From contig CM126206.1 of the NCBI GenBank assembly GCA_052327205.1, forward strand, positions 286,812,001 to 286,876,000: a stretch of DNA of 64,000 nucleotides, in the 5' to 3' direction. The translations under genes and the position numbers were made by a program. Source of the DNA: Somniosus microcephalus (lineage: Eukaryota). Shown one piece after another: positions 4,248 to 24,345 of this stretch; positions within the stretch are counted from its first letter, which is position 1, and every line of letters starts with the position of its first letter. Below the pieces are notes generated by a model. It saw only the letters and a list, made by a program, of their open reading frames with translations. It was not told the origin of the DNA and did no database searches.

Positions 4248-4421
4248 GGGGCAATTTTAACCTCAACTGCCTGTCGGGCAACTGACAAGATCAGGTGCAA
4301 TGCTGCTTTTACACCTCACCTGACTTTAGTCAACGGGGAGTAATACTGGGCGGGTGTAAAACTGGCACGCCACCCGATCCGATGGGATTCCCACCCGGCG
4401 AGGTAGATTAAAATTAACCCC
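4248..4421. mobile_element. Fold-back MITE (Harbinger-like) inserted in a Penelope-type fragment
   Basis: Imperfect TIRs ggggcaattttaacct / agattaaaattaacccc; internal inverted pairs ttttacacc/ggtgtaaaa and gatcaggtg/cacccgatc. No clear TSD. Confidence 0.6.
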
Positions 4422-4489
4422 ATTGTTTCAGGAGTGGACCCTTCCTCAGAGCTGAGATGTATCAGGGTGTGGCAGGTGTGAAGGAGGAT

Positions 4490-7400
4490 GGGAGGTGGCG
4501 GGTGTGCTGAGGGTGGGGATGTGCTGGGGGTGGGGGGGTTTGCTGGGGGTGGGGGGGTGTGCTGGGGGTGGGCGCGTGTGTTGGGGGGTGGTGGGTGTGC
4601 TGGGGGTGGTGGGTGTGCTGGGGGTGGGGGTGTGTGCTGAGGGTGGGGGGTGTGCTGGGGGTGGCGGGTGTGCTGGGGGTGGTGGGTGTGCTGGGGTGGG
4701 GGATGTGCTGGGGGTGGGGGTGTGCTGGGGGTGGGGGGGTGTGCTGGGGGTGGGGGGGGTGCTGGGGGTGGGGGGGTGTGCTGGGGTGGGTGTGTGCTGA
4801 GGGTGGGGGGTGTGCTGCGGGTCGTGGGTGTGCTGGGGGTGGGGGTGTGCTGGGGTGGGGGGGTGTGCTGGGGGTGGGGGGGGTGCTGGGGGTGGGGGGG
4901 TGTGCTGGGGTGGTGGGTGTGCTGCGGGTGGGGGTGTGCTGGGGGTGGGGGGGTGCTGGGGGTGGGGGGGTGTGCTGGGGTGGTGGGTGTGCTGGGGTGG
5001 TGGGTGTGCTGGGGGTGGGGGGGTGCTGGGGGTGGGGGGGTGTGCTGAGGGTGGGGGGTGTGCTGGGGGTGGGGGTTGTGCTGGGGTGGGCGGGTGTGCT
5101 GGGGGTGGGGGGGTGCTGGGGGTGGGGGGGTGTGCTGAGGGTGGGGGGTGTGCTGGGGGTGGGGGTTGTGCTGGGGTGGGCGGGTGTGCTGGGGGTGGCG
5201 GGTGTGCTGGGGGTGGTGGGTGTGCTGGGGGTGGGGGGGTGTGCTGGGGGTGGGGGTTGTGCTGGGGTGGTGGGTGTGCTGGGGGTGGTGGGTGTGCTGG
5301 GGGTGGGGGGTGTGCTGGGTGTGGTGGGTGTGCTGGGAGTGGGGGGTGTGCTGGGGGTGGGGGTGTGCTGGGGGTGGTGGGTGTGTGCTGGGGGTGGCGG
5401 GTGTGCTGGGGGTGGGGGGTGTGCTGGGGGTGGGGGTGTGCTGGGGGTGGTGGGTGTGTGCTGGGGGTGGCGGGTGTGCTGGGGGTGGGGGGTGTGCTGG
5501 GGGTGGGGGTGTGTGCTGGGGGTGGGGGGGTGTGCTGGGGGTGGGCGGGTGTGCTGGGGTGGTGGGTGTGCTGGGGGTGGGGGGGTGCTGGGGGTGGGGG
5601 GGTGTGCTGAGGGTGGGGGGTGTGCTGGGGGTGGGGGTTGTGCTGGGGTGGGCGGGTGTGCTGGGGGTGGGGGGGTGCTGGGGGTGGGGGGGTGTGCTGA
5701 GGGTGGGGGGTGTGCTGGGGGTGGGGGTTGTGCTGGGGTGGGCGGGTGTGCTGGGGGTGGCGGGTGTGCTGGGGGTGGTGGGTGTGCTGGGGGTGGTGGG
5801 TGTGCTGGGGGTGGGCGGGTGTGCTGGGGGTGGGCGGGTGTGCTGGGGGTGGGGGGTGTGCTGGGGGTGGCGGGTGTGCTGGGGTGGTGGGTGTGCTGGG
5901 GGTGGGGGGGTGTGCTGAGGGTGGGGGGTGTGCTGGGGGTGGGGGTTGTGCTGGGGTGGGCGGGTGTGCTGGGGGTGGCGGGTGTGCTGGGGGTGGCGGG
6001 TGTGCTGGGGTGGTGGGTGTGCTGGGGGTGGGCGGGTGTGCTGGGGGTGGGCGGGTGTGCTGGGGGTGGTGGGTGTGCTGGGGGTGGTGGGTGTGCTGGG
6101 GGTGGGCGGGTGTGCTGGGGGTGGTGGGTGTGCTGGGGGTGGTGGGTGTGCTGGGAGTGGGGGGTGTGCTGGGGGTGGGGGGTGTGCTGGGGGTGGTGGG
6201 TGTGCTGGGGGTGGTGGGTGTGCTGGGGGTGGTGGGTGTGCTGGGGGTGGCGGGTGTGCTGGGGTGGGGGGTGTGCTGGGGGTGGGGGGGTGTGCTGGGG
6301 TGGTGGGTGTGCTGCGGGTGGGGGTGTGCTGGGGGTGGGGGGGTGCTGGGGGTGGGGGGGTGTGCTGGTGGTGGGGGTTGTGCTGGGGTGGTGGGTGTGC
6401 TGGGGGTGGTGGGTGTGCTGGGGGTGGGGGGTGTGCTGGGTGTGGTGGGTGTGCTGGGAGTGGGGGGTGTGCTGGGGGTGGGGGTGTGCTGGGGGTGGTG
6501 GGTGTGTGCTGGGGGTGGCGGGTGTGCTGGGGGTGGGGGGTGTGCTGGGGGTGGGGGTGTGCTGGGGGTGGGGGGGTGTGCTGGGGGTGGGCGGGTGTGC
6601 TGGGGTGGTGGGTGTGCTGGGGGTGGGGTGGTGCTGGGGGTGGGGGGGTGTGCTGAGGGTGGGGGGTGTGCTGGGGGTGGGGGTTGTGCTGGGGTGGGCG
6701 GGTGTGCTGGGGGTGGGGGGGTGCTGGGGGTGGGGGGGTGTGCTGAGGGTGGGGGGTGTGCTGGGGGTGGGGGTTGTGCTGGGGTGGGCGGGTGTGCTGG
6801 GGGTGGCGGGTGTGCTGGGGGTGGCGGGTGTGCTGGGGGTGGTGGGTGTGCTGGGGGTGGGCGGGTGTGCTGGGGGTGGGCGGGTGTGCTGGGGGTGGGG
6901 GGTGTGCTGGGGGTGGCGGGTGTGCTGGGGTGGTGGGTGTGCTGGGGGTGGGGGGGTGTGCTGAGGGTGGGGGGTGTGCTGGGGGTGGGGGTTGTGCTGG
7001 GGTGGGCGGGTGTGCTGGGGGTGGCGGGTGTGCTGGGGGTGGCGGGTGTGCTGGGGTGGTGGGTGTGCTGGGGGTGGGCGGGTGTGCTGGGGGTGGGCGG
7101 GTGTGCTGGGGGTGGTGGGTGTGCTGGGGGTGGTGGGTGTGCTGGGGGTGGGCGGGTGTGCTGGGGGTGGTGGGTGTGCTGGGGGTGGTGGGTGTGCTGG
7201 GAGTGGGGGGTGTGCTGGGGGTGGGGGGTGTGCTGGGGGTGGTGGGTGTGCTGGGGGTGGTGGGTGTGCTGGGGGTGGTGGGTGTGCTGGGGGTGGCGGG
7301 TGTGCTGGGGTGGGGGGTGTGCTGGGAGTGGGGGGTGTGCCGGGGGTAGTGGCTGTGCTGGGGGTGGTGGGTGTGTCAGGGGGTGGGGGGTGTGCTGGGG

Positions 7401-7590
7401 GTGGTGGGTGTGCTGGGGGTGGTGGGTGTGCTGGGGGTGGGGGTGTGCTGGGGGTGGCGGGGGTGGCGGGTGTGTCGGGGGTGGCGGGTGTGCCGGGGGT
7501 GGGGGGTGTACCAGGGGTGGCGGGTGTGCCGGGGGTAGTGGCTGTGCTGGGGGTGGTGGGTGTGTCAGGGGGTGGCGGGTATGCTGGAGT
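4490..7590 (+). repeat. G-rich minisatellite, ~18-bp unit GGGTGTGCTGGGGGTGG(T/C/G), with a ~1.05-kb higher-order duplication
   Basis: Directly visible; units 17-20 bp. Matching blocks at offset 1046 (5710/6756, 5928/6974). Confidence 0.97.
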
Positions 7591-8369
7591 CCCGATTGTG
7601 GATGAGTTGGGAACTCATGTGCCCTGTAAGGTGCAGTGTAACCGTGGCCATCAGATTCCTTCACTTCAGTTGGATGATGCACAGTCCGGACCAATTGCTC
7701 AAACATGCCACATGGCCATGCAGTTTAACCTTGGTGCTGTTTTTCTGTGCAGGGGATGGTGCATTTTTGCACAGCGTGTGGGAAACAAAAGATTAACACT
7801 TGCTGCTTGATCTGAGAAGGGTAGAAACTGTTCACAAACAGCCTGATAAAAGACACAGGTTTTGTGTGACGGCAGGATTTGAGTGGAGGAGTTCACCGTG
7901 CTTCACCACACGCACAACAGGCTCTGTTTTGTTTTGATTATAAAGAATATTGAATGTTTAGAATAAATTGCGACAAGTAAACAGTGTGTGATGATCCGAG
8001 GGACACAGGAAGGGCATTGTATTTTCCATTAAAGGGACATTGTCTCCATGGTAATATGTTTGACAGGCCATCTTGTGTTTCTTGACAAACTTATGATTCA
8101 ATGATGTTGCAAATGAAATGCCACACACTTGTTCTCCTCTCCGAACTAAAGGTGATCGCTTTTTCATTAAATCGTAGCTCCTTTAATTCTTTTTTCTTTT
8201 GCTTTCTCCATTCTGCTCCCTAGTTTTCTCCCCTTGGCCCTGGTCTCCTGAAGGCACTGATTAGCCCTCAGGTGATGAGGGCCCTCGCTGACAACAACTT
8301 GCACTTGTGTCACACCAAGGGAATTTACAAAGAAACAATGCAAGAAAACAGATCCAGAGGTTAGAGGAA

Positions 8370-9277
8370 GCGACTTAGAGGCCAGGTTGGGAAGCTTTCT
8401 AAAGGAGGACAGAGAATAAGAGAGGTTGAGGGAGGGAGTTCCAATGAGTAGGGCCAAGGCGGCTGGAGACTCTGCCATTGAGGGGTGGGAATCTGTGTTG
8501 GGGGATGGAAGGGTTTTCGAGGGGTATTTAGCTGGAGGTGGTTGTTGCGATAGGGAGTTGCAAGGAAGTGGAAGGATCTGATGTCAAGGTCAAAGCTTTT
8601 AAATTGGATACATGGGGTGGGGTGGGAACAGGGAAACAGTGCGGGTCAGCAAGGATTGGGGTGATGGTCGAGCAGGGCATAATGTGGGAGAGGATGCAGG
8701 CTGCTGCATTTTGGACAAGGTGGAGTTTATGGAGGATGGATGATGGAAGACCAGCAAGCAGAGTGTTGAAGTACAGGGAACTCTCTTTTAACCGGCACCT
8801 AAAAAAAAAACCCGGAAACCTCTGTTAACCGGCAAAATTCAGGAGTAGGTTCAGGTAAGTTTTACTTCATATTAGTGGCAGTTCCTGGATCTGTGGCTGT
8901 GTAACTGGGGTTCGTGCACTTGTTGCTAAGCAACAGGGATGCTTGGTCTGTGGCCGGAGTTCCTGCACATGTTGCTAAGCAACAGGGAAGCCTGGATTTG
9001 TTGCTGTGTACGGAGCTCTCGTACCTTTTAAACTATACCTCTCTGTAATCTGGACTTTTTGATAAACCGGCACCACGCCGGTCCCGTCGGTGCCGGATAA
9101 TAAAGAGTTTCCTGTAGACAAGTCTGCATGTGATAAAAGTGTCGGTGATGGTTTCAGTAGCCGGGGGAGGGATTGAGATGCGGTGGAGATGGCGATGTTA
9201 TGGAGGTAGAAGTAAGCAGATTTGATGATGTGAGCTATGAACCTCATTTCAGGGTTGAGCACGATACCAAGGTTGCT
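8370..9277 (-). mobile_element. L2 LINE 3' fragment, split by a MITE
   Basis: Minus-strand NLGIVLNPEMRF...IIKSAYFYLHNIA; similar to the other L2 copies; sequence resumes after the MITE. Confidence 0.75.
8774..9114. mobile_element. TA-flanked Tc1/mariner (pogo/Tigger-like) MITE, copy 1
   Basis: TA|CAGGGAACTCT ... AGAGTTTCCTG|TA; internal GTTGCTAAGCAAC at 8922 and 8971. Confidence 0.85.
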
Positions 9278-9495: not shown

Positions 9496-10214
9496 TGTCC
9501 CAAGGTTGCTTCTCCACTGTGGAGGGCATCACAGCCATGCCGCTCATGTTCACCTGCGATCCTTCAACACGTGTAGGGCTCACTGGACAATGGCCAGGAG
9601 TGGGACACCGAGCTACTTTTGCCCCCTCACTACCCCGGGACCCCTGAGACTAGTTGATGTGTCCCCTCACTGCCACACAGGCTGGGACTGAGTTACTGAC
9701 TCCAACCAGAAACAGCACAAAGTATTGGAACGACAATGCGCCCGTCTGACTGGCCTGTTCTGTGTTTATCTCTCTATGTAAACCTCTCTGCCTCTTCAGT
9801 GCCGATTCTGACTGTTGCTGGTTTCATCTGAAGACCAAACTATGATAAAATGTGTAAATAAGTTGGTGGGAATTAAACCCGAAGGCCACATTTCCTTTTG
9901 CATACAAATGGCTGATGTGCATCAACATATTCAATCCAGGGGATATTTTTACTTTATTTTTTAAAAGGCCAGTGCGTTTGTTAATGTATTGCCAATTATT
10001 TTGTTTTAGTTTAAGGGGCCAATTTACTCCTTTTGGCTCCAAAGCACAAATTAGGGCCCTTGGCATCCACTGATGAATTGTGGGCACATGGGGCAGTGCA
10101 GGGCAACACTAAAGTCACACAAGCCTTCATACAGGCGCTTTTATTTCAAAGCAGTATCGTCAGCTCCTAACGTATGGGTACCATTTGGCCAATGCCACCG
10201 CCAAGATGGACGCC

Positions 10215-10659
10215 AGCCATGGCTCAGTGGCAAGCACTCTTGCCCTTGAGTCAGAAGGTCATAGGTTCAAGCCCCACTCCAGAGACTTGAGCACCTAACT
10301 AGTCTGACAACCCAATGTAATACCGAGGGAGTGCTGCACTGCCAGAGTTGCTGTCTTTCGGTTGAGATGTTAAACCGAGCTCCTGTCCCCCTCTCGGGTG
10401 CACATAAAATATCCATGACACAATTCAAAGAACAGGAGCGTTCTCCCAGTGTCCTGGCCAATATTTATGCCTCAATCGACACCTCGAGGGAGATAGAAAC
10501 TGGTCATTTACCTCATTGCTGTTTGTGAGATCTTGCTGTGCACAAATTGGCTGCCACATATGCCTAAAACCAACAGTGACACTACTTCACTAGTAACTCA
10601 CTTTCTGCCGAGCGCTTTGAGACATCCTGAGGATGTAAAAGGTGCTGCGCAAAGACAAG
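10215..10659 (+). mobile_element. SacSINE1-like SINE whose last bases are displaced to ~17952-17970 by the Harbinger insertion
   Basis: tRNA head, Deu core, tail ...aaagacaag; the expected continuation ttc(g)ttctttc appears right after the Harbinger right TIR. Confidence 0.85.
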
Positions 10660-11218: not shown

Positions 11219-11845
11219 ACACAACTTTAAATCCCCATTTTACAATAGTCCCACACCTTACCATCCCTCTGTTCTGGACCATCACAGCGTCCTCTTGGCC
11301 ACAATGTTGAAATAAAAGCCACCACAAAGCAAACTTTCCAATCCAACTTTATACATCAAGCCATCCAATATTACAGAACAAAGTCAACTAATCACCCTTG
11401 TGCATTCCCTTAGTGCCTGTCTTCCGTGTGCCTTTGCCTGTCCTAGTGCTCCTATGCAATGCTACCTCAGTGGCTGCAGCATAGCTGGTGAAAGGCTGCT
11501 GACTTTCGGTGGGGGAGATTGCAGATGGCCGAGCACCTCTGGGCCTAGAAGGCCTGAATTTAGACTGCACCACCTCGGCGTGGGCGGCAACAGTCTGGGC
11601 TGGCTGGCTGACAGGCAACAGCAAGAGCCCTGGCGGAGTGGCAATGGCGAGAGTATGAATGCTGTCATCCTGAGAGAGAACAGCAGGTTCACGCTCCACG
11701 GAGCCATTGCCACTCCCCAGGGGTAGTGCCTCAGCAGTCCTAGTAATCTGCTGGAGTATAGACTGCTGGACTGCTGTGACACCCTGCAAGCCCCTTTCCA
11801 CACTGGTTACCGCAGCCACGATGGCAGCAGCCTGAGCTTGCGTGG

Positions 11846-12110
11846 TGTGATGAAATATTCCATTCATCACTCATCAGTATTTCTCTGCCTGTGACTGTGG
11901 TTGGTTTCAGTTTCATTTCCATTGTATTGTACTGTGTGTAGGGCTCCGCCCATACCTGGCTCCTATGTAAGCTGGCCCAGCCTGCAGCACATCCAGTACG
12001 GCAGACCTCTGGATGGAAGATACATTCTCCTCTGTGTGTTACCTTCTAAGTCAATAAAAGCCTTGTTTTGTTTCGCTAACATCGAGTCTCGGATTTATTG
12101 AGGCACATCA
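11846..12110 (+). repeat. 5' LTR
   Basis: TGTGATG...CACATCA; AATAAA at 12053-12058. Confidence 0.98.
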
Positions 12111-12111
12111 A

Positions 12112-12124
12112 TTTTATTGACTTA
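12112..12124 (+). promoter_or_regulatory. Non-tRNA sequence at the PBS position, complementary to LTR 12047-12059
   Basis: TTTTATTGACTTA is the exact reverse complement of TAAGTCAATAAAA; no TGG start. Confidence 0.75.
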
Positions 12125-12136
12125 ATTTTCAACACA

Positions 12137-15100
12137 ATGGATCAACTCTTGAAACCCGAACGTTTGGATTTGGACCAGCATGCTTCGGACGCATCGGCAC
12201 GCTTCGGACACTGGTTTATGTGTATGGAATTCTTCCTGGACAATTCCGCAGCCGTCAAAGACGCTACGGACGCTGCGAGTATGAAACTCGGAATTCTGCG
12301 GAATTGGGTAAGCCACCGGGTTTACCCCCTCATCCAAGACGCCGACACGTACCCGGCCGCCTGCGACATCTTAAAGGCGCATTACCATCAGCCTACGAAT
12401 GAGGTGTATGCTAGGCATCTGCTCGCTACTCGCGCACAGCGACCTGGGGAATCGGTGGAGGAGTTCCTAGGCACCCTGAAAATGCTTGGCAAAGACTGCA
12501 AGTGCCAAGATGTAAAAGCCGCAGTGTACACTGACGAGCTTGTTCGCGATGCCTTTATCACAGGCCTCAGCTCCACTTACATCTGGCAGAGACTGCTGGA
12601 AAAAACGGGATTGGACCTGAAACAGGCTGCGGACACAGCACGATCCCTGGATGTGGCCCAGAGAAACTCGGACGCCTACTCTTCAGCCCGCGCCGTCCAT
12701 GCCGCCACGTGTGCACCAAGGGCGCCGCCATCTTGGAAGGCATCTTCCCCGCCCGGCAGCCCAACACCGTCAGGTCCCCGCTCTCCCCCCAGAAGCCCTA
12801 CGACAGCCGCGACGCGTCGGGGACCCAACTGCTACTTCTGCGGGCAGCCGAAGCACACCAGAAACCTGTGCCCGGCGAAAGGCACCACCTGCTTTAAGTG
12901 CGGTAAGAAGGGGCACTTCGGGAAGGTGTGCAGAGGGAACCCCGCCGGAAAACCCGCCACCGCCGCGTGTGCGCCGTGGGAGCGGCCATCTTGGACGCCA
13001 TCTTGCCCGACCTCGTGGGGTCCGCCATCTTGTGAGCAGACAGCGTGGACGCCATCTTGTCTCGATCAGGGCCCTACAGTGGCATCGGTCACAGTGGACC
13101 AGACCAGGCCGCACCCGCTATCCAAATCAATGGTGGACATCGAGGTAAACGGGTGCAGGGTTAAATGTTTAATTGACAGTGGAAGCACGGAGAGTTTTAT
13201 CCACCCTGAACTGGTACAACAACTCTCCCTAAAGGTGGTCCCTACTCGGGGTACCATCTCTATGGCTGATAAAACCCAGACATCGACCATTATGGGTTAC
13301 TGCACGGTACAATTGTCTGTTAACGGAACTGTATACGATAATTTTAAAGTATTAATCATGAAGAATCTATGTGCGAGCATGATCTTGGGCCTGGATTTCC
13401 AGTGCTACCACCAAAGCATCACGCTCAATTACGGTGGGTCCCAGCCGCCCCTCACAGTGTGCGGTCTGGCTACCCTGAAGGTAAAGCCGCCTTCGCTATT
13501 CGTGAACCTTACCCCTAACTGCCGGCCAATAGCGACCAAAAGCAGGAGGTACAGCTGGGAGGACAGGCGGTTTATCGCGACCGAGGTAGACAGGCTCCTG
13601 AAAGAGCGCATTATTGAACGCAGCAATAGCCCGTGGCGCGCCCAAGTGGTGGTGGTAAGGGGTAGCGAGAAGAAACGGATGGTGATCGACTATAGCCAAA
13701 CGATCAACAGGTACACCCAACTAGACGCCTACCCGCTACCCCGCATATCAGAAATGGTGAACCAAATCGTCCAATACCGGGTGTTCTCCACCATCGACCT
13801 CAAGTCAGTGTACCACCAGCTCCCTATCAGACCAGAGGACCGCCCGTACACCGCCTTCAAGGCGAACGGACGCCTCTACCAATTCCTCAGAGTCCCCTTT
13901 GGGGTGACGAATGGGGTCTCGGTCTTCCAGAGGGAGATGGATCGCATGGTCGATGACCACCACTTGCAGGCAACCTTCCCCTACCTCGACAACGTCACCA
14001 TCTGCGGTCACAACCAGCAGGATCATGACTCGAACCTCGAGAGGTTCCTGAAAACCGCACAAAAACTCAACCTCACCTACAACGAGGGCAAGTGCGTTTA
14101 CAACACCACGTGCCTCTGCATACTAGGCAGCGTGGTGGAGAATGGGGAAATCGGACCAGACCCCGACCGATTGCGCCCCCTACGGGAGCTGCCCCTGCCC
14201 AACACTCCCAAAGCCCTGAAAAGGTGCCTGGGGTTATTTTCTTATTATTCCCAATGGGTCCCCAACTACTCCGACAAAGCCCGCCCCCTCTTGAAAGCAT
14301 CCTCTTTTCCGCTCTCTGCGGAGGCCCATGCCGCCTTCAAAAGCATTAAGCAGGATATTGAGCGGGCCACGCTACAGGCAGTGGACGAGAACACTCCCTT
14401 TCAAGTGGAAAGTGATGCGTCTGACTTTGCCTTGGCGGCCACCCTCAACCAGGCGGGGCGGCCCGTAGCTTTCTTCTCGAGGACCCTCCAAGGGCCCGAG
14501 ATCAGACACTCCTCCGTAGAAAAGGAGGCCCAAGCCATCGTGGAGGCAGTGCGCCACTGGCGCCACTACCTAGCCGGCAAACGCTTCACCCTACTTACCG
14601 ACCAGCGGTCGGTAGCGTTTATGTTCAATAATAAACAGAGGGGGAAGATTAAAAATGATAAGATTCTTAGGTGGCGGATCGAGCTCTCCACCTTCGATTA
14701 TGACATCATTTACCGGCCAGGGGCCCTTAACGAATCCCCCGACGCCCTCTCACGAGGGATGTGTGCCAGCGCCACCGGGGATCGGCTACAGACCCTCCAC
14801 AACGACCTCTGCCACCCAGGAGTCACGCGGCTGTTCCACTTCATAAAGTCCCGCAACTTACCCTACTCGATTGAGGAAGTTCGGTCCCTGACCAGGAACT
14901 GTCGCACTTGCGCTGAGTGCAAGCCTCGGTTCTACCGCCCAGATAGAGCCCACTTAATCAAAGCTACACGGCCCTTTGAGCGGCTCAGCTTAGATTTCAA
15001 GGGCCCCCTCCCATCCGCCGACCGCAATGTTTACTTCCTGAACATTGTGGACGAATACTCTCGTTTCCCATTCGCCTTCCCCTGCCCAGACATGACCAGC

Positions 15101-15894
15101 GCCACGGTCATTAAATGCCTCAACAGCCTGTTCTGCCTGTTCGGTATGCCGAGCTACATCCATACGGATAGGGGGGCGTCCTTCATGAGTGAAGAGCTAC
15201 GCCAGTACATGCTGTCCAAGGGGATCGCCACGAGCCGTACCACCAGCTACAACCCCCGGGTAACGGTCAAGCGGAGCGAGAGAACGGGACAGTATGGAAA
15301 GCAGTCACTCTAGCTCTAAGGACCAAAGGCCTCCCTATCTCCCGCTGGCAGGAAGTCCTCCCAGATGTGCTCCATTCGATACGGTCGCTATTGTGTACTG
15401 CCACTAATGCCACGCCTCACGAGCGAATGTTTGTCTTTCCCCGGAAATCCACCTCAGGCGTATCCATGCCGTCATGGCTCTCCACCCCAGGTCCGGTATT
15501 CGTGCGAAGGCATGTGAGGGGCCACAAGACGGACCCTCTCGTGGAGTCAGTGCACCTACTCCACGCCAACCCCCAATACGCGTATGTCCGGCACGCCGAC
15601 GGAAGGGAGGACACCGTGTCCATAAAAGACGTCGCCCCAGCCGGTAACGACAACAACCACGACAACAGCAGCAACAACGACCACAGCAACTCTTACCCAC
15701 CCACTACTCTTTCATCACCCCCGGAAGAACATCGACCAATGGTACCCCCACCAACTACCCCTTCAACAACCCTGGCGGCACCCCCGGCAGAGACCCAGGA
15801 GGCCACCGGGGACACCCAGCCGACACCCACGGCACCACAACAGCCACGTCGGTCGCAGAGGACTATCAAACCCCCGAACAGACTAAATCTATAG
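12137..15894 (+). CDS. Single gag-pol polyprotein (gag with 2 CCHC, protease, RT, RNase H, integrase); one 1-nt deletion near 15258-15260
   Basis: ATG at 12137; CYFCGQPKHTRNLC, CFKCGKKGHFGKVC, IDSGS, SPWRAQVVVV, PFGVTN, YLDN, SDASD, HNDLCHPG..CRTC, HTDRG. Adding one G restores YNPRGNGQAERENG and joins ORF 15367-15894. Confidence 0.92.
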
Positions 15895-15904
15895 AAGGGG
15901 TGAA

Positions 15905-16169
15905 TGTGATGAAATATTCCATTCATCACTCATCAGTATTTCTCTGCCTGCGACTGTGGTTGGCTTCAGTTTCATTTCCATTGTATTGTACTGTGTGTAG
16001 GGCTCCGCCCATACCTGGCTCCTATGTAAGCTGGCCCAGCCTGCAGCACATCCAGTACGGCAGACCTCTGGATGGAAGATACATTCTCCTCTGTGTGTTA
16101 CCTTCTAAGTCAATAAAAGCCTTGTTTTGTTTCGCTAACATCAAGTCTCGGATTTATTGAGGCACATCA
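15905..16169 (+). repeat. 3' LTR
   Basis: 262/265 identical to the 5' LTR by eye. Confidence 0.98.
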
Positions 16170-18445
16170 CGTGGCAGTAAGCTGAGCTTGCATGACAGAA
16201 TTATGAGCTTCCGCTGCAGTACTCAGGTGCTGGGTGGCTTCTGCTGCAATGGAAGCTGAGACATTGGCCATCAGATGCTGCATCATGGTTGGACCCACAA
16301 GTGCGCTAATGCAGTTGGCCATCACTTCCATGCTGGAATCATGGGCTCCAAGTTATGCGCAAAGCCCTGTGCAAGGTTGGTGCCGGATTCCTCTATGCTC
16401 CTTGACATTGCACTCAGGCTTTCTGGCAGGCCTGCCGTTGCACCTAGCACTTCATTGTGCATAAACATCAGCATTCTTCTTTAGGCCGCCCCATCAAAGT
16501 CCTTATCTGAGTCCTCTGCAGCAGAACTCGTGTGCGACCTCGTCCTCCAGGGAGCTGGCACCTGCGCCACCCTTTCCCCCCTGCCCTAGCTGCAAGCCAC
16601 TCATGTCCGATGTCTCACCTCATGCAGATCCTGTCTCTAACCTATCCTCTAAAATATGCGGAGTGTCAGTAGCTGAGCAGTTGGCAGCGTGTGAAATTGA
16701 GTGATGGTGCTGTGTCTTCATCATCAGTGCCTTGGTGCTCTTCTGTTTCGTGCTCCTCCACCAGGGCCTGGCCAGGTGGCAGTTCTTGGCTATCTGAAAG
16801 GAGAAAGTCATAAGGGTAGGGTTGTGGTGAGGGGAGGGTGGGAAAGCAAGAGATGCATGCTTACACCATGTGCAGCTTGTAAATCAGAAGAGATTGTAGG
16901 ATGAGGGAAGTGGGATGTGAGAAGGAGGGTTACGTATGAGGATACCGTTAGCTTGTATTGCTTCAACCCCGGTGCTGGCCATGGGCTCAGCGATGGCCCT
17001 CCCAATAATGGCCAACACCATCTCCTCCATCGGGGTGATATTATGTAGGCGCGCCTGTCCCCCTCCGGTTAGGTCCTGCTGCCTCCTGTTGTGAGCCACC
17101 TTCTCCTGCAAGAGAACGGGAAGTGTGTCAGTGAGTGCAGTGCACGGTGTTTGGGTGATATGCCTGTCATGGTTGAATAGCTGACAGTGTGTGCAAGCTG
17201 TGAAATGTGGGTGTGAGGCTTGCAGCTGTGGTAAGTGTGAGAGGGTGAGGTGAAGCTCTGAATGTGAGGTATGAGTCGTGTTTGGTAGAGATTGTTGGTA
17301 GGTGGGTGATGGGGGTGTGGTGCATTGAGCCGTGTGTGAGACTAGTTGTGTAGATTGTAGGATATGGCAGTTGAAGATGAATTCACTGACTTTGACCACT
17401 CGTGTGAGGTTATTAAACTTCTTCCTGCACTGCATTCAGGTCCTCGGGGCTACACTGCTGGCATTGACCACCACGGCTATCTGCTCCCATTGCCTTTTCC
17501 GCATTTGCCCGGTGGGCCTCCTGGCTCCCTGTGGAAACAGGAGCTCTGTCCTCATGTTCACCTCCTGCACCAAGGCCTCCAGTGCTGCATCGGAGTGAGC
17601 ACGCTCTCTCCCCTGTTGTGACACCTGTAGTACTTTTTGCTGCTCTGACTCTGTTCCCCAGCCAGTTGAATCACCTGCTGCAGGTAGAATGCACCTCCCC
17701 TTGAAGAGGTGCTGACTGTCTTTAAGAAGTGCAGGCTAGCTTTAATTGGTCCTAGCCTTGCAAGAACGTGGGACCCCTGCTGAGCGTCAGCCACTCAACA
17801 GCACGCTCAGCGCTGGGCTGAAAGCCACAATCATGTCAGTCAGCAGGCAGCATGAAGTTAGAGTGATGCCTGCATTACTTTGAACGGGTAAGGGTTGATC
17901 CCGAATTACGAACCCCGCGCCTGTTTTCTGGGGCAAACCAGTTTCTAGCCAAAGTTCGTTCTTTCTTTGTTTTAGTGAATCCTATTGTTACATATTCATC
18001 TTCCTATAATAAACCTTTCCTCTGGGTGCTGCTACACCTCCGTTATCACCCTGCTGAGAATTCAAGCACGCATAAAATGAAGCTTCCACAAGCACCATTT
18101 TGGCTTTCGCTGTATTCATGACTCTTCGCCCCACCTTACTTTTCATTCTGATTCCCGTGCCGCTTTGACATTGGTGACTAAATGCCACGAATGACCTGCC
18201 AGATATAAGCATTGGTTGCCGTGGCAGGTGCTACAGGTTGTAAAACAGCCAATTGCGAAGCCCTCACTATTATTTTGAGGTCAGCCAATGCAGCTTTGGA
18301 GGACCGTCTCTATTTTGCTCCCAAGGACATCTGTCGCCCATCTTCAGCCTCCAGGTTCGGCCTGCTAATCTGTGCAGTTCCCGACTTGGCCTTCAGATTA
18401 GATAAGTCGGCATTTCCCAGGTTCCCAGCTTGGTCCCCTTCCTTC

Positions 18446-20845: not shown

Positions 20846-21228
20846 ACAACAACAACAACTTGCATTTATATAGCACCTTTAATGTAGTAAAACATCCCCA
20901 AAGCGCTTCACAGGAGATATCAAATAAAAATTGACACTGAGCCACATAATGAGCTATTAGGATAGGTGGTCAAAGAGGTAGGTTTTAAGGAGACTCTTAA
21001 AGGAGGAGAGAGAGGTGGAGAGGTTTAGGGAGGGCATTCCAGATCTTACGGCCTAGGCAGCTGAAGGCACGGCCATCAATAGTGGGGAGAAGGAAGTCGG
21101 GGATGCACAAGAGGCCAGAATTGGAGGAATACAGTGATCTCCGAGGGTTGTAGGGATGGAGGAGGTTACAGAGATAGGGAGGGGTGAGGCCATAGAGAAT
21201 GTGAACACAAGGATGAGAATTTTTAAAT
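20846..21228 (-). mobile_element. L2 LINE 3' end
   Basis: (caa)n-cttgcatttatatagc tail; reverse complement of the 18560 family. Confidence 0.88.
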
Positions 21229-21265
21229 ATGAAAGAATCAGGAGCTGGCACATGGATATTGGTCC

Positions 21266-21605
21266 ACACAGGCACAGGAGGAGGCCATTCAGCTCCTTGG
21301 GCCTATTACATAGGCACAGGAGGAGGCCATTCAGCTCCTTGGGCCTATTACACAGGCACAGGAGGAGGCCATTCAGCTCCTTGGGCCTATTACATAGGCA
21401 CAGGAAGAGGCCATTCAGCCCCTCCAACCTGTTACATAGGCACAGGAGGAGGCCATTTGGTCCCTCGAGCCTGATACATAGGCACAGGAGAAGGCCGTTC
21501 TTCCCCTTGTGCCTGACAAATAGGAACAGGAGTAGGCCATTTAGCCCCTCAAGCCTGCCATGCCATTCAATGTCATAGCTGATCTGTATCTCAACTCTAT
21601 TTCAC
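21266..21605 (-). repeat. Seven tandem 42-bp copies of a CR1 LINE 3' terminus, followed by CR1 body
   Basis: Units start at 21266, 21308, 21350, 21392, 21434, 21476, 21518; the last matches the reverse complement of the CR1 ends at 25955-25990 and 53965-54005. Confidence 0.88.
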
Positions 21606-22714: not shown

Positions 22715-23171
22715 GTGTCAGCCATGGCTCAGTGGGTCGCACACTTGCCTCTGAGTCAGAAGGTTGTGGGTTCAAGTCCCACTCCAGCGGACCTTGAGCA
22801 CAAATATCCAGGCTGACACTCCAGTGCAGTGCTGAGGGAGTGCTGCACTGTCGGAGGTTCCATCTTTCGGATGAGACGTTTAAACCGAGGCCCCGTCTGC
22901 TCTCTCAGATGGCATAAAAGACCCCAAGGCACTATTTCGAAGAAGAGCAGGGGAGATACCCCTGGTGTCCTGGCCAATATTTATCACTCAACCAACATCA
23001 CTAAAACAGATTATCTGGTCATTATTACATTGCTGTTTGTGGGACCTTGCTGTGTGCAAATTGGCTGCCACGTTTCCCACATTACAACAGTGACTCCACT
23101 TCAAAGAGAAATTCATTGGCTGTAAAGCGCTTTGAGACGTCCGGTGGTCGTGAAAGGCGCTATATAAATGC
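22715..23171 (+). mobile_element. Full-length SacSINE1-like SINE
   Basis: A/B boxes, Deu core, tail aaaggcgctatataaatg. Confidence 0.92.
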
Positions 23172-24127: not shown

Positions 24128-24345
24128 AATTTCCTACATTACAACAGTGACTACACTTCAAATATAGATGATCTGGTCATTATCACATTGCTGTTTGTGG
24201 GACCTTACTGTGCACAAATTGGCTGCCACATTTCCTACATTACAACAGTGACTACACTTTATAAGGACTTCATTGGCTGTAAAGCACTTTGGGATGTAAT
24301 GAGTTTGTGAAAGGCGCTATAGAAATATAATTTGTTCTTTCTTTA
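24128..24345 (+). mobile_element. SINE 3' portion with a duplicated 30-bp block
   Basis: atttcctacattacaacagtgactacactt occurs twice. Confidence 0.75.

Follow-up and report, generated by a model that had tools for sequence, protein, structure and literature searches.

A Gypsy element of Somniosus microcephalus with a candidate self-priming site: a 13-nt LTR arm and a primer-binding site that change together

Which molecule primes reverse transcription in a Gypsy element whose primer-binding site carries no TGG? The question was raised by one element in a stretch of 64,000 nt from the genome of Somniosus microcephalus (hereafter the window), for which an earlier note had proposed self-priming from the LTR. 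So far, experiments have shown self-priming for Tf1, and most predicted cases are among its chromovirus relatives, with a single Copia lineage of plants besides. Finding it in a second large animal clade would mean that priming without a tRNA is common and probably had more than one origin. Self-primed elements would also be without the tRNA-complementary site of tRNA-primed elements, which is described as a target of 3′ tRNA fragments (PMC7472051).

The element and its 5′ LTR junction

The element is a young Gypsy insertion of 4,324 bp, and its two LTRs have 3 differences between them. The LTRs, the target-site duplication, the polypurine tract and the order protease-RT-RNase H-integrase placed it in Ty3/Gypsy, and the closest solved structure for its protein was Ty3 Gag-Pol (E 9.5e-57). 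The gag-pol frame was broken late in the integrase, at ~15250–15310. The features used below are listed with their strand and basis.

11841–11845, +, left target-site duplication CGTGG (sequence)
11846–12110, +, 5′ LTR, 265 bp, TG...CA (LTR pair comparison)
11946–11951, +, GC box 5′ of the TATA-like element, putative promoter part (same layout in sister families)
11964–11971, +, degenerate TATA-like box (5/8 own-genome families have canonical TATAAA at this place)
11992–11997, +, initiator-like word, 31 nt past the TATA-like box (predicted start ~11995)
12047–12059, +, 13-nt arm, the predicted self-primer, with the predicted cut at 12059/12060 (complementarity, covariation)
12053–12058, +, AATAAA within the arm, likely the poly(A) signal in its 5′ copy (sequence)
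12060–12065, +, second stem, 5′ strand, beginning at the predicted cut (covariation)
12094–12101, +, 8-nt second complement of the earlier note (overlaps the U5 inverted repeat and the second stem)
12097–12101 with 12108–12112, +, U5 inverted repeat (stem comparison)
12099–12104, +, second stem, 3′ strand (covariation)
12112–12124, +, primer-binding site of non-tRNA type, complement of the arm (complementarity, covariation)
12137–15313, +, gag-pol frame from ATG 12137 (two CCHC knuckles, protease, RT, RNase H, integrase core)
15193–15894, +, open stretch in a different frame, 3′ end of pol (neither a Pfam match nor a chromodomain)
15893–15904, +, polypurine tract (sequence)
15905–16169, +, 3′ LTR, with the arm copy at 16106–16118 and AATAAA at 16112–16117 (LTR pair comparison)
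16170–16174, +, right target-site duplication CGTGG (sequence)

The earlier note had described 12112–12124 and 12047–12059 as exact 13-nt reverse complements, and both coordinates and letters were correct. The primer site lies 1 nt past the 5′ LTR, after a single A at 12111, and the arm contains AATAAA, both as described there. Complementarity stopped at 13 nt with no extension on either flank, and only 52 nt separated the 5′ arm from the primer site. When the LTR was put through 20,000 dinucleotide shuffles and compared with the post-LTR sequence, a match of 11 nt arose once and matches of 12 or 13 nt never. The hairpin of arm and primer site had a folding z of −3.5. The arm copies in the 5′ and 3′ LTRs were identical.

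Other repeats were seen in the window. Five GCCATCTT copies at 12727–13058 surround and separate the zinc knuckles in the 3′ portion of gag; they resemble YY1 sites and might serve as a silencing element or a downstream promoter. A dispersed SINE-like repeat was present on both flanks of the element (10214–10654, 22719–23169, and 24130–24326). A long G/T-rich simple-repeat tract with strong skew occupied 4300–7800, and a 42-bp tandem array occupied 21224–21601.

Covariation of the arm and the primer site

The exact word spanning the LTR end and the primer site occurred 1,097 times in this genome, and two sister versions of it 5,106 times. At least 6,200 exact junctions in a single genome make the system tractable. 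Ninety loci were collected by Gag match; this set comprised matches to three subfamilies, was selected by similarity and included the 3 query loci. The 13-bp duplex was perfect in 83 of them and had one mismatch in 6, and the remaining locus had no LTR at that position. For a second sample of 80 copies, nothing but the primer-site sequence was used (40 copies from the first 41 listed places of one version and 40 from the first 44 of the other), and 79 were scored after one copy without an LTR was set aside. The arm base matched the primer site in 79/79 copies at position −8 (39 C-G, 40 T-A) and in 79/79 at position −12 (68 A-T, 11 G-C), and these pair states recurred across several LTR backgrounds. 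Only 3 of the 79 copies had a single arm change, two of which gave G-U, and none was shared between copies.

Individual loci showed further variants. In L041, both LTRs (4922–4936 and 8779–8793) carried the same arm change with the primer site unaltered, possibly a first-generation intermediate that precedes re-copying of the primer site. L104, with an identical flank, is probably the same insertion. L246 and L247, on different contigs, had an identical single primer-site mismatch at pair −11, which reflects either a recurrent mutation or a small lineage tolerating the mismatch. In L280 and L281, LTR–primer-site junctions lay 1.7 kb apart, and the downstream sequence matched no gag reference; these are possibly internally deleted or non-autonomous derivatives.

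Homologues with 37–48% identity over the first 500 residues were found in named records from rays, sharks, cnidarians, nematodes, crustaceans, and echinoderms, with a catshark named besides a ray. The search of viral contigs gave one distant element. Metagenomes gave 80 loci; inspection took in the 32 whose match lay close to the start of Gag, and 30 of these were carried forward. Five loci were dropped for lack of the LTR-end motif and 2 more for lack of the arm motif, and 1 own-genome locus also had no arm motif. The LTR-end and arm anchors were set by motif, two primer-site starts were placed by hand, and 54 loci were left.

These 54 loci comprised 25 distinct arm/primer-site combinations, in which 316 of 325 cells were Watson-Crick, against 222 ± 7 (maximum 253) in 20,000 permutations of the partners. 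The three G-U cells all came from one locus (L100), which was probably mis-anchored. Twenty-one family representatives (8 own-genome and 13 metagenome) were chosen by hand, leaving out L100 and decayed duplicates. Over the 13 positions, 272 of their 273 pairs were Watson-Crick, with compensatory changes and zero G-U; the families are related, and the cells in these counts are not independent events. The covariation between the primer site and the arm flanking AATAAA, which the earlier note had named as the test of its proposal, was very strong.

All 21 primer sites began with TTT instead of the TGG of a tRNA-primed site. The arm had A at positions −1 to −3, G at −10 and a pyrimidine at −13 in every representative, and A at −11 in 17 of 21. 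Nine of the 13 primer-site positions varied between families, together with their partner in the LTR arm. Pairing beyond the duplex was seen at −14, −15, and −16 in 11, 12, and 9 of the 21 representatives, respectively, partly above permutation. The elements L042 and L044 were 99.2% identical over 2.9 kb and differed by a double transversion at pair −7, which was carried by both LTRs of L042.

A second stem was formed by the first bases 3′ of the arm. It reached at least 4 bp in 15 of 20 representatives, whereas 5,000 shuffles gave a mean of 5.2 and a maximum of 12; three of the 20 were close sisters. Five families had A-U as the first pair of this stem, others had G-C or G-U, and only 2–3 bp were present in 5 of the 20. 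The minimum-energy fold of the window family had another inner pairing (−20.5 kcal/mol vs. −17.7 kcal/mol with the second stem enforced). The inverted repeat at the U5 end was also above chance, with a stem sum of 91 vs. 71 ± 4 in shuffles. Stems extending the duplex upstream and downstream were not above shuffles among the family representatives.

Two candidates were rejected. The 8-nt match at 12094–12101 exists as the earlier note had reported, but the competing role given to it there was not borne out: it varied in the sister subfamilies with a changed arm, in which the arm duplex was kept. It overlaps the U5 inverted repeat and is better read as part of this repeat and of the second stem. 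A hammerhead match on the minus strand (HH9) scored 16.8 bits against a cut-off of 52 and was taken as chance.

Across the clade, the duplex kept its length and register, changed by compensation and was accompanied by a covarying second stem. A fixed tRNA or other host primer cannot explain the paired change of arm and primer site, and self-priming is therefore likely. Judged from these sequence comparisons, the element probably primes from its own LTR arm. The priming, cleavage and occlusion discussed below are inferred.

RNA start, poly(A) signal and the source of the primer

The explanation that we prefer, and regard as probable, is that the 13-nt site pairs with the LTR stretch, which primes after a cut at 12059/12060. 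The RNA would begin at ~11995, so that the arm would lie within R, away from the 5′ end. The arm would fold onto the primer site, and the RT/RNase H of the element would cleave where the two stems meet, like the RNase H of Tf1; an RNase H domain is present in gag-pol, and its role in cleavage is predicted. The released 3′-OH would copy 12111 back to 12060. Here the orientation argument of the earlier note was right: a cut after AAUAAAA gives a 3′-OH facing U5. The short DNA would then transfer to the 3′ end of the RNA via the 10–30 nt that separate the cut from the poly(A) site, and with an overlap of this kind a poly(A) signal at or just past the primer end is the natural layout. During plus-strand synthesis, the primer would be copied and the primer site thereby renewed with the letters of the arm, and this would account for pairs that are strictly Watson-Crick and never G-U. 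The absence of G-U from propagated lineages suggested such re-copying. This fits the Tf1 cDNA, about half of which keeps the full primer-site sequence at its 3′ end (PMC11042837).

A GC box and a canonical TATAAA were found 71–73 nt 5′ of the arm in five of the eight own-genome families, and the other three had degenerate versions. The spacing from TATA to arm was 70–83 nt across these families. Among the distant families, a TATA-like word was present in only 2 of 12. Transcription is predicted from these motifs to start about 40–55 nt 5′ of the arm; the TATA spacing gives 41–53 nt, and the start would be at ~11995 in the window. With TATA at this position, the primer is predicted to be internal to R, unlike that of Tf1, and in this one predicted respect the analogy drawn by the earlier note would fail.

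Within the same explanation, and sharing its probability, there is a variant in which the replicating RNA starts at the arm or within two bases of it, as in Tf1, and the TATA-driven start belongs to a different RNA. In Tf1, the first 11 RNA bases are the primer (PMC7175516), and in Tf2 alternative starts decide whether the RNA is primable (PMC5341516). The sharp end of complementarity after 13 nt would suit such a start, and an internal primer leaves this limit without explanation unless the primer is trimmed. The −13 pyrimidine, the −11 A and the −10 G of the arm resemble an initiator. Against this variant stand the TATA and GC box 71–73 nt before the arm and the free spacing of TATA; in a sushi-like control from the same genome, a TATA-like word lies exactly 30 nt before the 11-nt primer in the one LTR checked. 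We hold the variant to be possible but doubtful. Predictions can be given to the single base: the RNA 3′ end is predicted at 12059 and the template 5′ end at 12060, with the cap at ~11995 or at 12047–12049.

Two RNA-seq runs chosen by species label, of which 24 and 31% were read, gave 9,131 and 15,383 element reads; the family was transcribed, with 30/30 bins covered and no usable ends. At 12119, the letter was mostly that of the sister primer-site version (32/36 and 167/230 reads), and the reads derive from family copies, possibly of another species. A search for genomic poly(A)-tailed retrocopies that could place the poly(A) site, made with two patterns, gave 0 matches, and neither a cleavage product nor a cDNA intermediate was seen in these data.

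The primer could instead be the arm copy of the 3′ LTR, at the 3′ end of the RNA, freed by a cut that removes the tail. This would leave the 5′ R intact and give a long transfer region; an upstream start and the location of AATAAA would become natural, and the two arm copies are identical. However, with only 52 nt between them, the 5′ arm and the primer site should be first to pair, and no precedent was found in the literature examined. This source of the primer was considered very unlikely.

AATAAA was present in the arm in all eight own-genome families, whereas the 13 metagenome representatives had AATAAA in 2, ATTAAA in 5, and neither in 6. Poly(A) signals include variant hexamers, and in 5 of the 6 families with neither form in the arm a poly(A)-like hexamer of this set was located past the cut and before the LTR end, compared with 2 of the other 14 families (p 0.007 by Fisher test, 0.004 by shuffling, and 0.04 for the metagenome families alone; the families are not independent). 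This shift past the cut indicated that the arm hexamer is likely the real poly(A) signal where it is present, and that its overlap with the arm is dispensable in the clade. Both layouts would place the poly(A) site 3′ of the cut, as strand transfer requires.

In folding predictions, the unpaired probability of AAUAAA was at most 0.01 with the primer site (5′ context) vs. 0.14–0.48 in the 3′ LTR. The earlier note had proposed that the duplex could hide the 5′ poly(A) signal. On the predicted pairing, such occlusion is plausible in the shark lineage, though we lean slightly against it; it is not a requirement of the clade, because 6 of the 13 metagenome arms have neither AATAAA nor ATTAAA, and selection for occlusion across the clade seems unlikely. 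Hiding of the 5′ AAUAAA would probably be a side effect in the shark lineage.

The duplex might also be mainly a hairpin for poly(A) occlusion, like the poly(A) hairpin of HIV-1 (PMC12789967), or for translation control, with priming by something else. AATAAA lies in the arm in 8/8 own-genome families and is predicted to be fully paired in the 5′ context, and the start codon is only 15–33 nt from the start of the primer site. However, in every case with checkable LTR ends the partner strand lies 1 nt past the LTR, a position needed for priming alone, and a TGG site is absent. G-U was absent in propagated lineages although the neighboring stem tolerates it, and the duplex was retained in the 6 representatives without AATAAA or ATTAAA in the arm. 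We judged this role highly unlikely.

Priming by a host tRNA half or another small RNA, with a secondary match to the LTR, is extremely unlikely, since 9 of 13 primer-site positions change between families in step with the arm and the longest word shared with host tRNAs was 5 nt, although half-tRNA priming is known in Copia lineages (PMC6317226) and the comparison, a weak one, covered only part of the host tRNA set (30 loci representing 4 distinct sequences, Lys and Cys).

Comparison with known self-priming elements

In an RT tree of 30 rows, the 18 rows with the anatomy of the window element formed one clade (100/100, stem 1.32), and the sushi-like, Gmr1-like, and Mag-like rows fell outside it; the tree is read here without a branching order among lineages. 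Three other-element rows were left out of the clade count, and L096 had no usable row. The three lineage labels are our assignments from motifs and domain order: we take “sushi-like” from an SH3_Tf2-1 match and an RT motif, and “Mag-like” from a motif. RT identity was 29% between the clade and the sushi-like rows and 25–27% between the clade and the Mag-like rows, each on a separate branch, which placed the clade outside both the Tf1/sushi and the Mag groups. No chromodomain at the integrase C-terminus was found by Pfam at the 3′ end of pol. No element with a clear tRNA site, sought for rooting a test of origin, was recovered.

The self-priming mechanism of Tf1 is described in PMC7175516, bioRxiv 2022.12.06.519325, and PMC11042837. 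Like the window element, Tf1 and Tf2 of S. pombe, Tj1, and the Tf1/sushi chromovirus group have no tRNA site but an LTR stretch that pairs with a post-LTR primer site; they likewise need a cut for the 3′-OH and have extra stems beside the duplex (PMC7175516, PMC4600332, bioRxiv 2022.12.06.519325). The primer site of the window element is complementary to its own LTR in the same way, and by its sequence the element would work like Tf1 outside the Tf1/sushi group. The duplex is 13 nt in the window clade and 11 in Tf1/sushi, and the window element has no chromodomain match. The Tf1 RNA forms a “pretzel” of three duplexes (bioRxiv 2022.12.06.519325). The central duplex and one flanking stem were supported here, whereas the third, loop-leader duplex gave no signal above chance (stem sum 87 vs. 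96 ± 4 in shuffles). As to the 5′-end primer of Tf1, TATA spacing pointed against it and the initiator-like letters at the start of the arm pointed for it; the primer of the window lineage is predicted to be internal.

The sushi-like control of the same genome had the 11-nt self-complement in 4 of 5 loci. Its primer lay ~155 nt from its site, whereas this distance was 36–66 nt in most families of the window clade and 21 in one. AATAAA overlaps the primer in the window element; AATAAA and ATTAAA were absent from the two sushi-like LTRs checked.

Outside animals and fungi, self-priming is predicted for plant Tcn1 (Gypsy) and TAR (Copia), with a complement of at least 10 nt starting 0–5 nt past the LTR (PMC6317226). 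TAR resembles the window clade in being a predicted case outside the chromoviruses. Both belong to other lineages and hosts, and the source text for them describes no poly(A) overlap. The 5′ poly(A) hairpin of HIV-1 also sequesters the AAUAAA of R in a stem (PMC12789967), but it is separate from the tRNA primer site, whereas in the window element the primer site itself serves as partner strand, which is present only at the 5′ end.

The Cigr-1 clade, listed for a tunicate, molluscs, and annelids (PMC6238403, PMC8556966), is like the window element a compact single-frame Gypsy of marine animals; the two were compared by description. The words “PBS” and “self” did not occur in the main text of these two papers, and the RT motif had no match in 5 searchable supplements of PMC6238403. 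The literature searched, which left aside subscription journals, Repbase reports, and bioRxiv supplements, gave no account of self-priming in an animal Gypsy clade outside the chromoviruses, nor of such a primer overlapping a poly(A) signal. A self-priming Gypsy group is presumably named in Repbase, and the window clade may be catalogued there.

We tentatively speculated, while thinking it doubtful as a whole, that an animal-wide non-chromovirus Gypsy clade evolved self-priming independently of Tf1/sushi and to a different design, with a primer cut from inside R at the junction of two stems and measured to 13 nt. The primer of the shark lineage would be its poly(A) signal, and one duplex would silence the 5′ signal, prime, set the transfer overlap and rewrite the site in each cycle.

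Other Gypsy elements were met during these comparisons. L197, L199, L200, and L201 are abundant sushi-like elements of the same genome that served as the control; their primer site, self-complementary over 11 nt, is ~160 nt away from the LTR end. L267:3477–8859 and L271:1–9901 are clusters in which Gypsy elements of three or four different lineages are nested in or next to one another.
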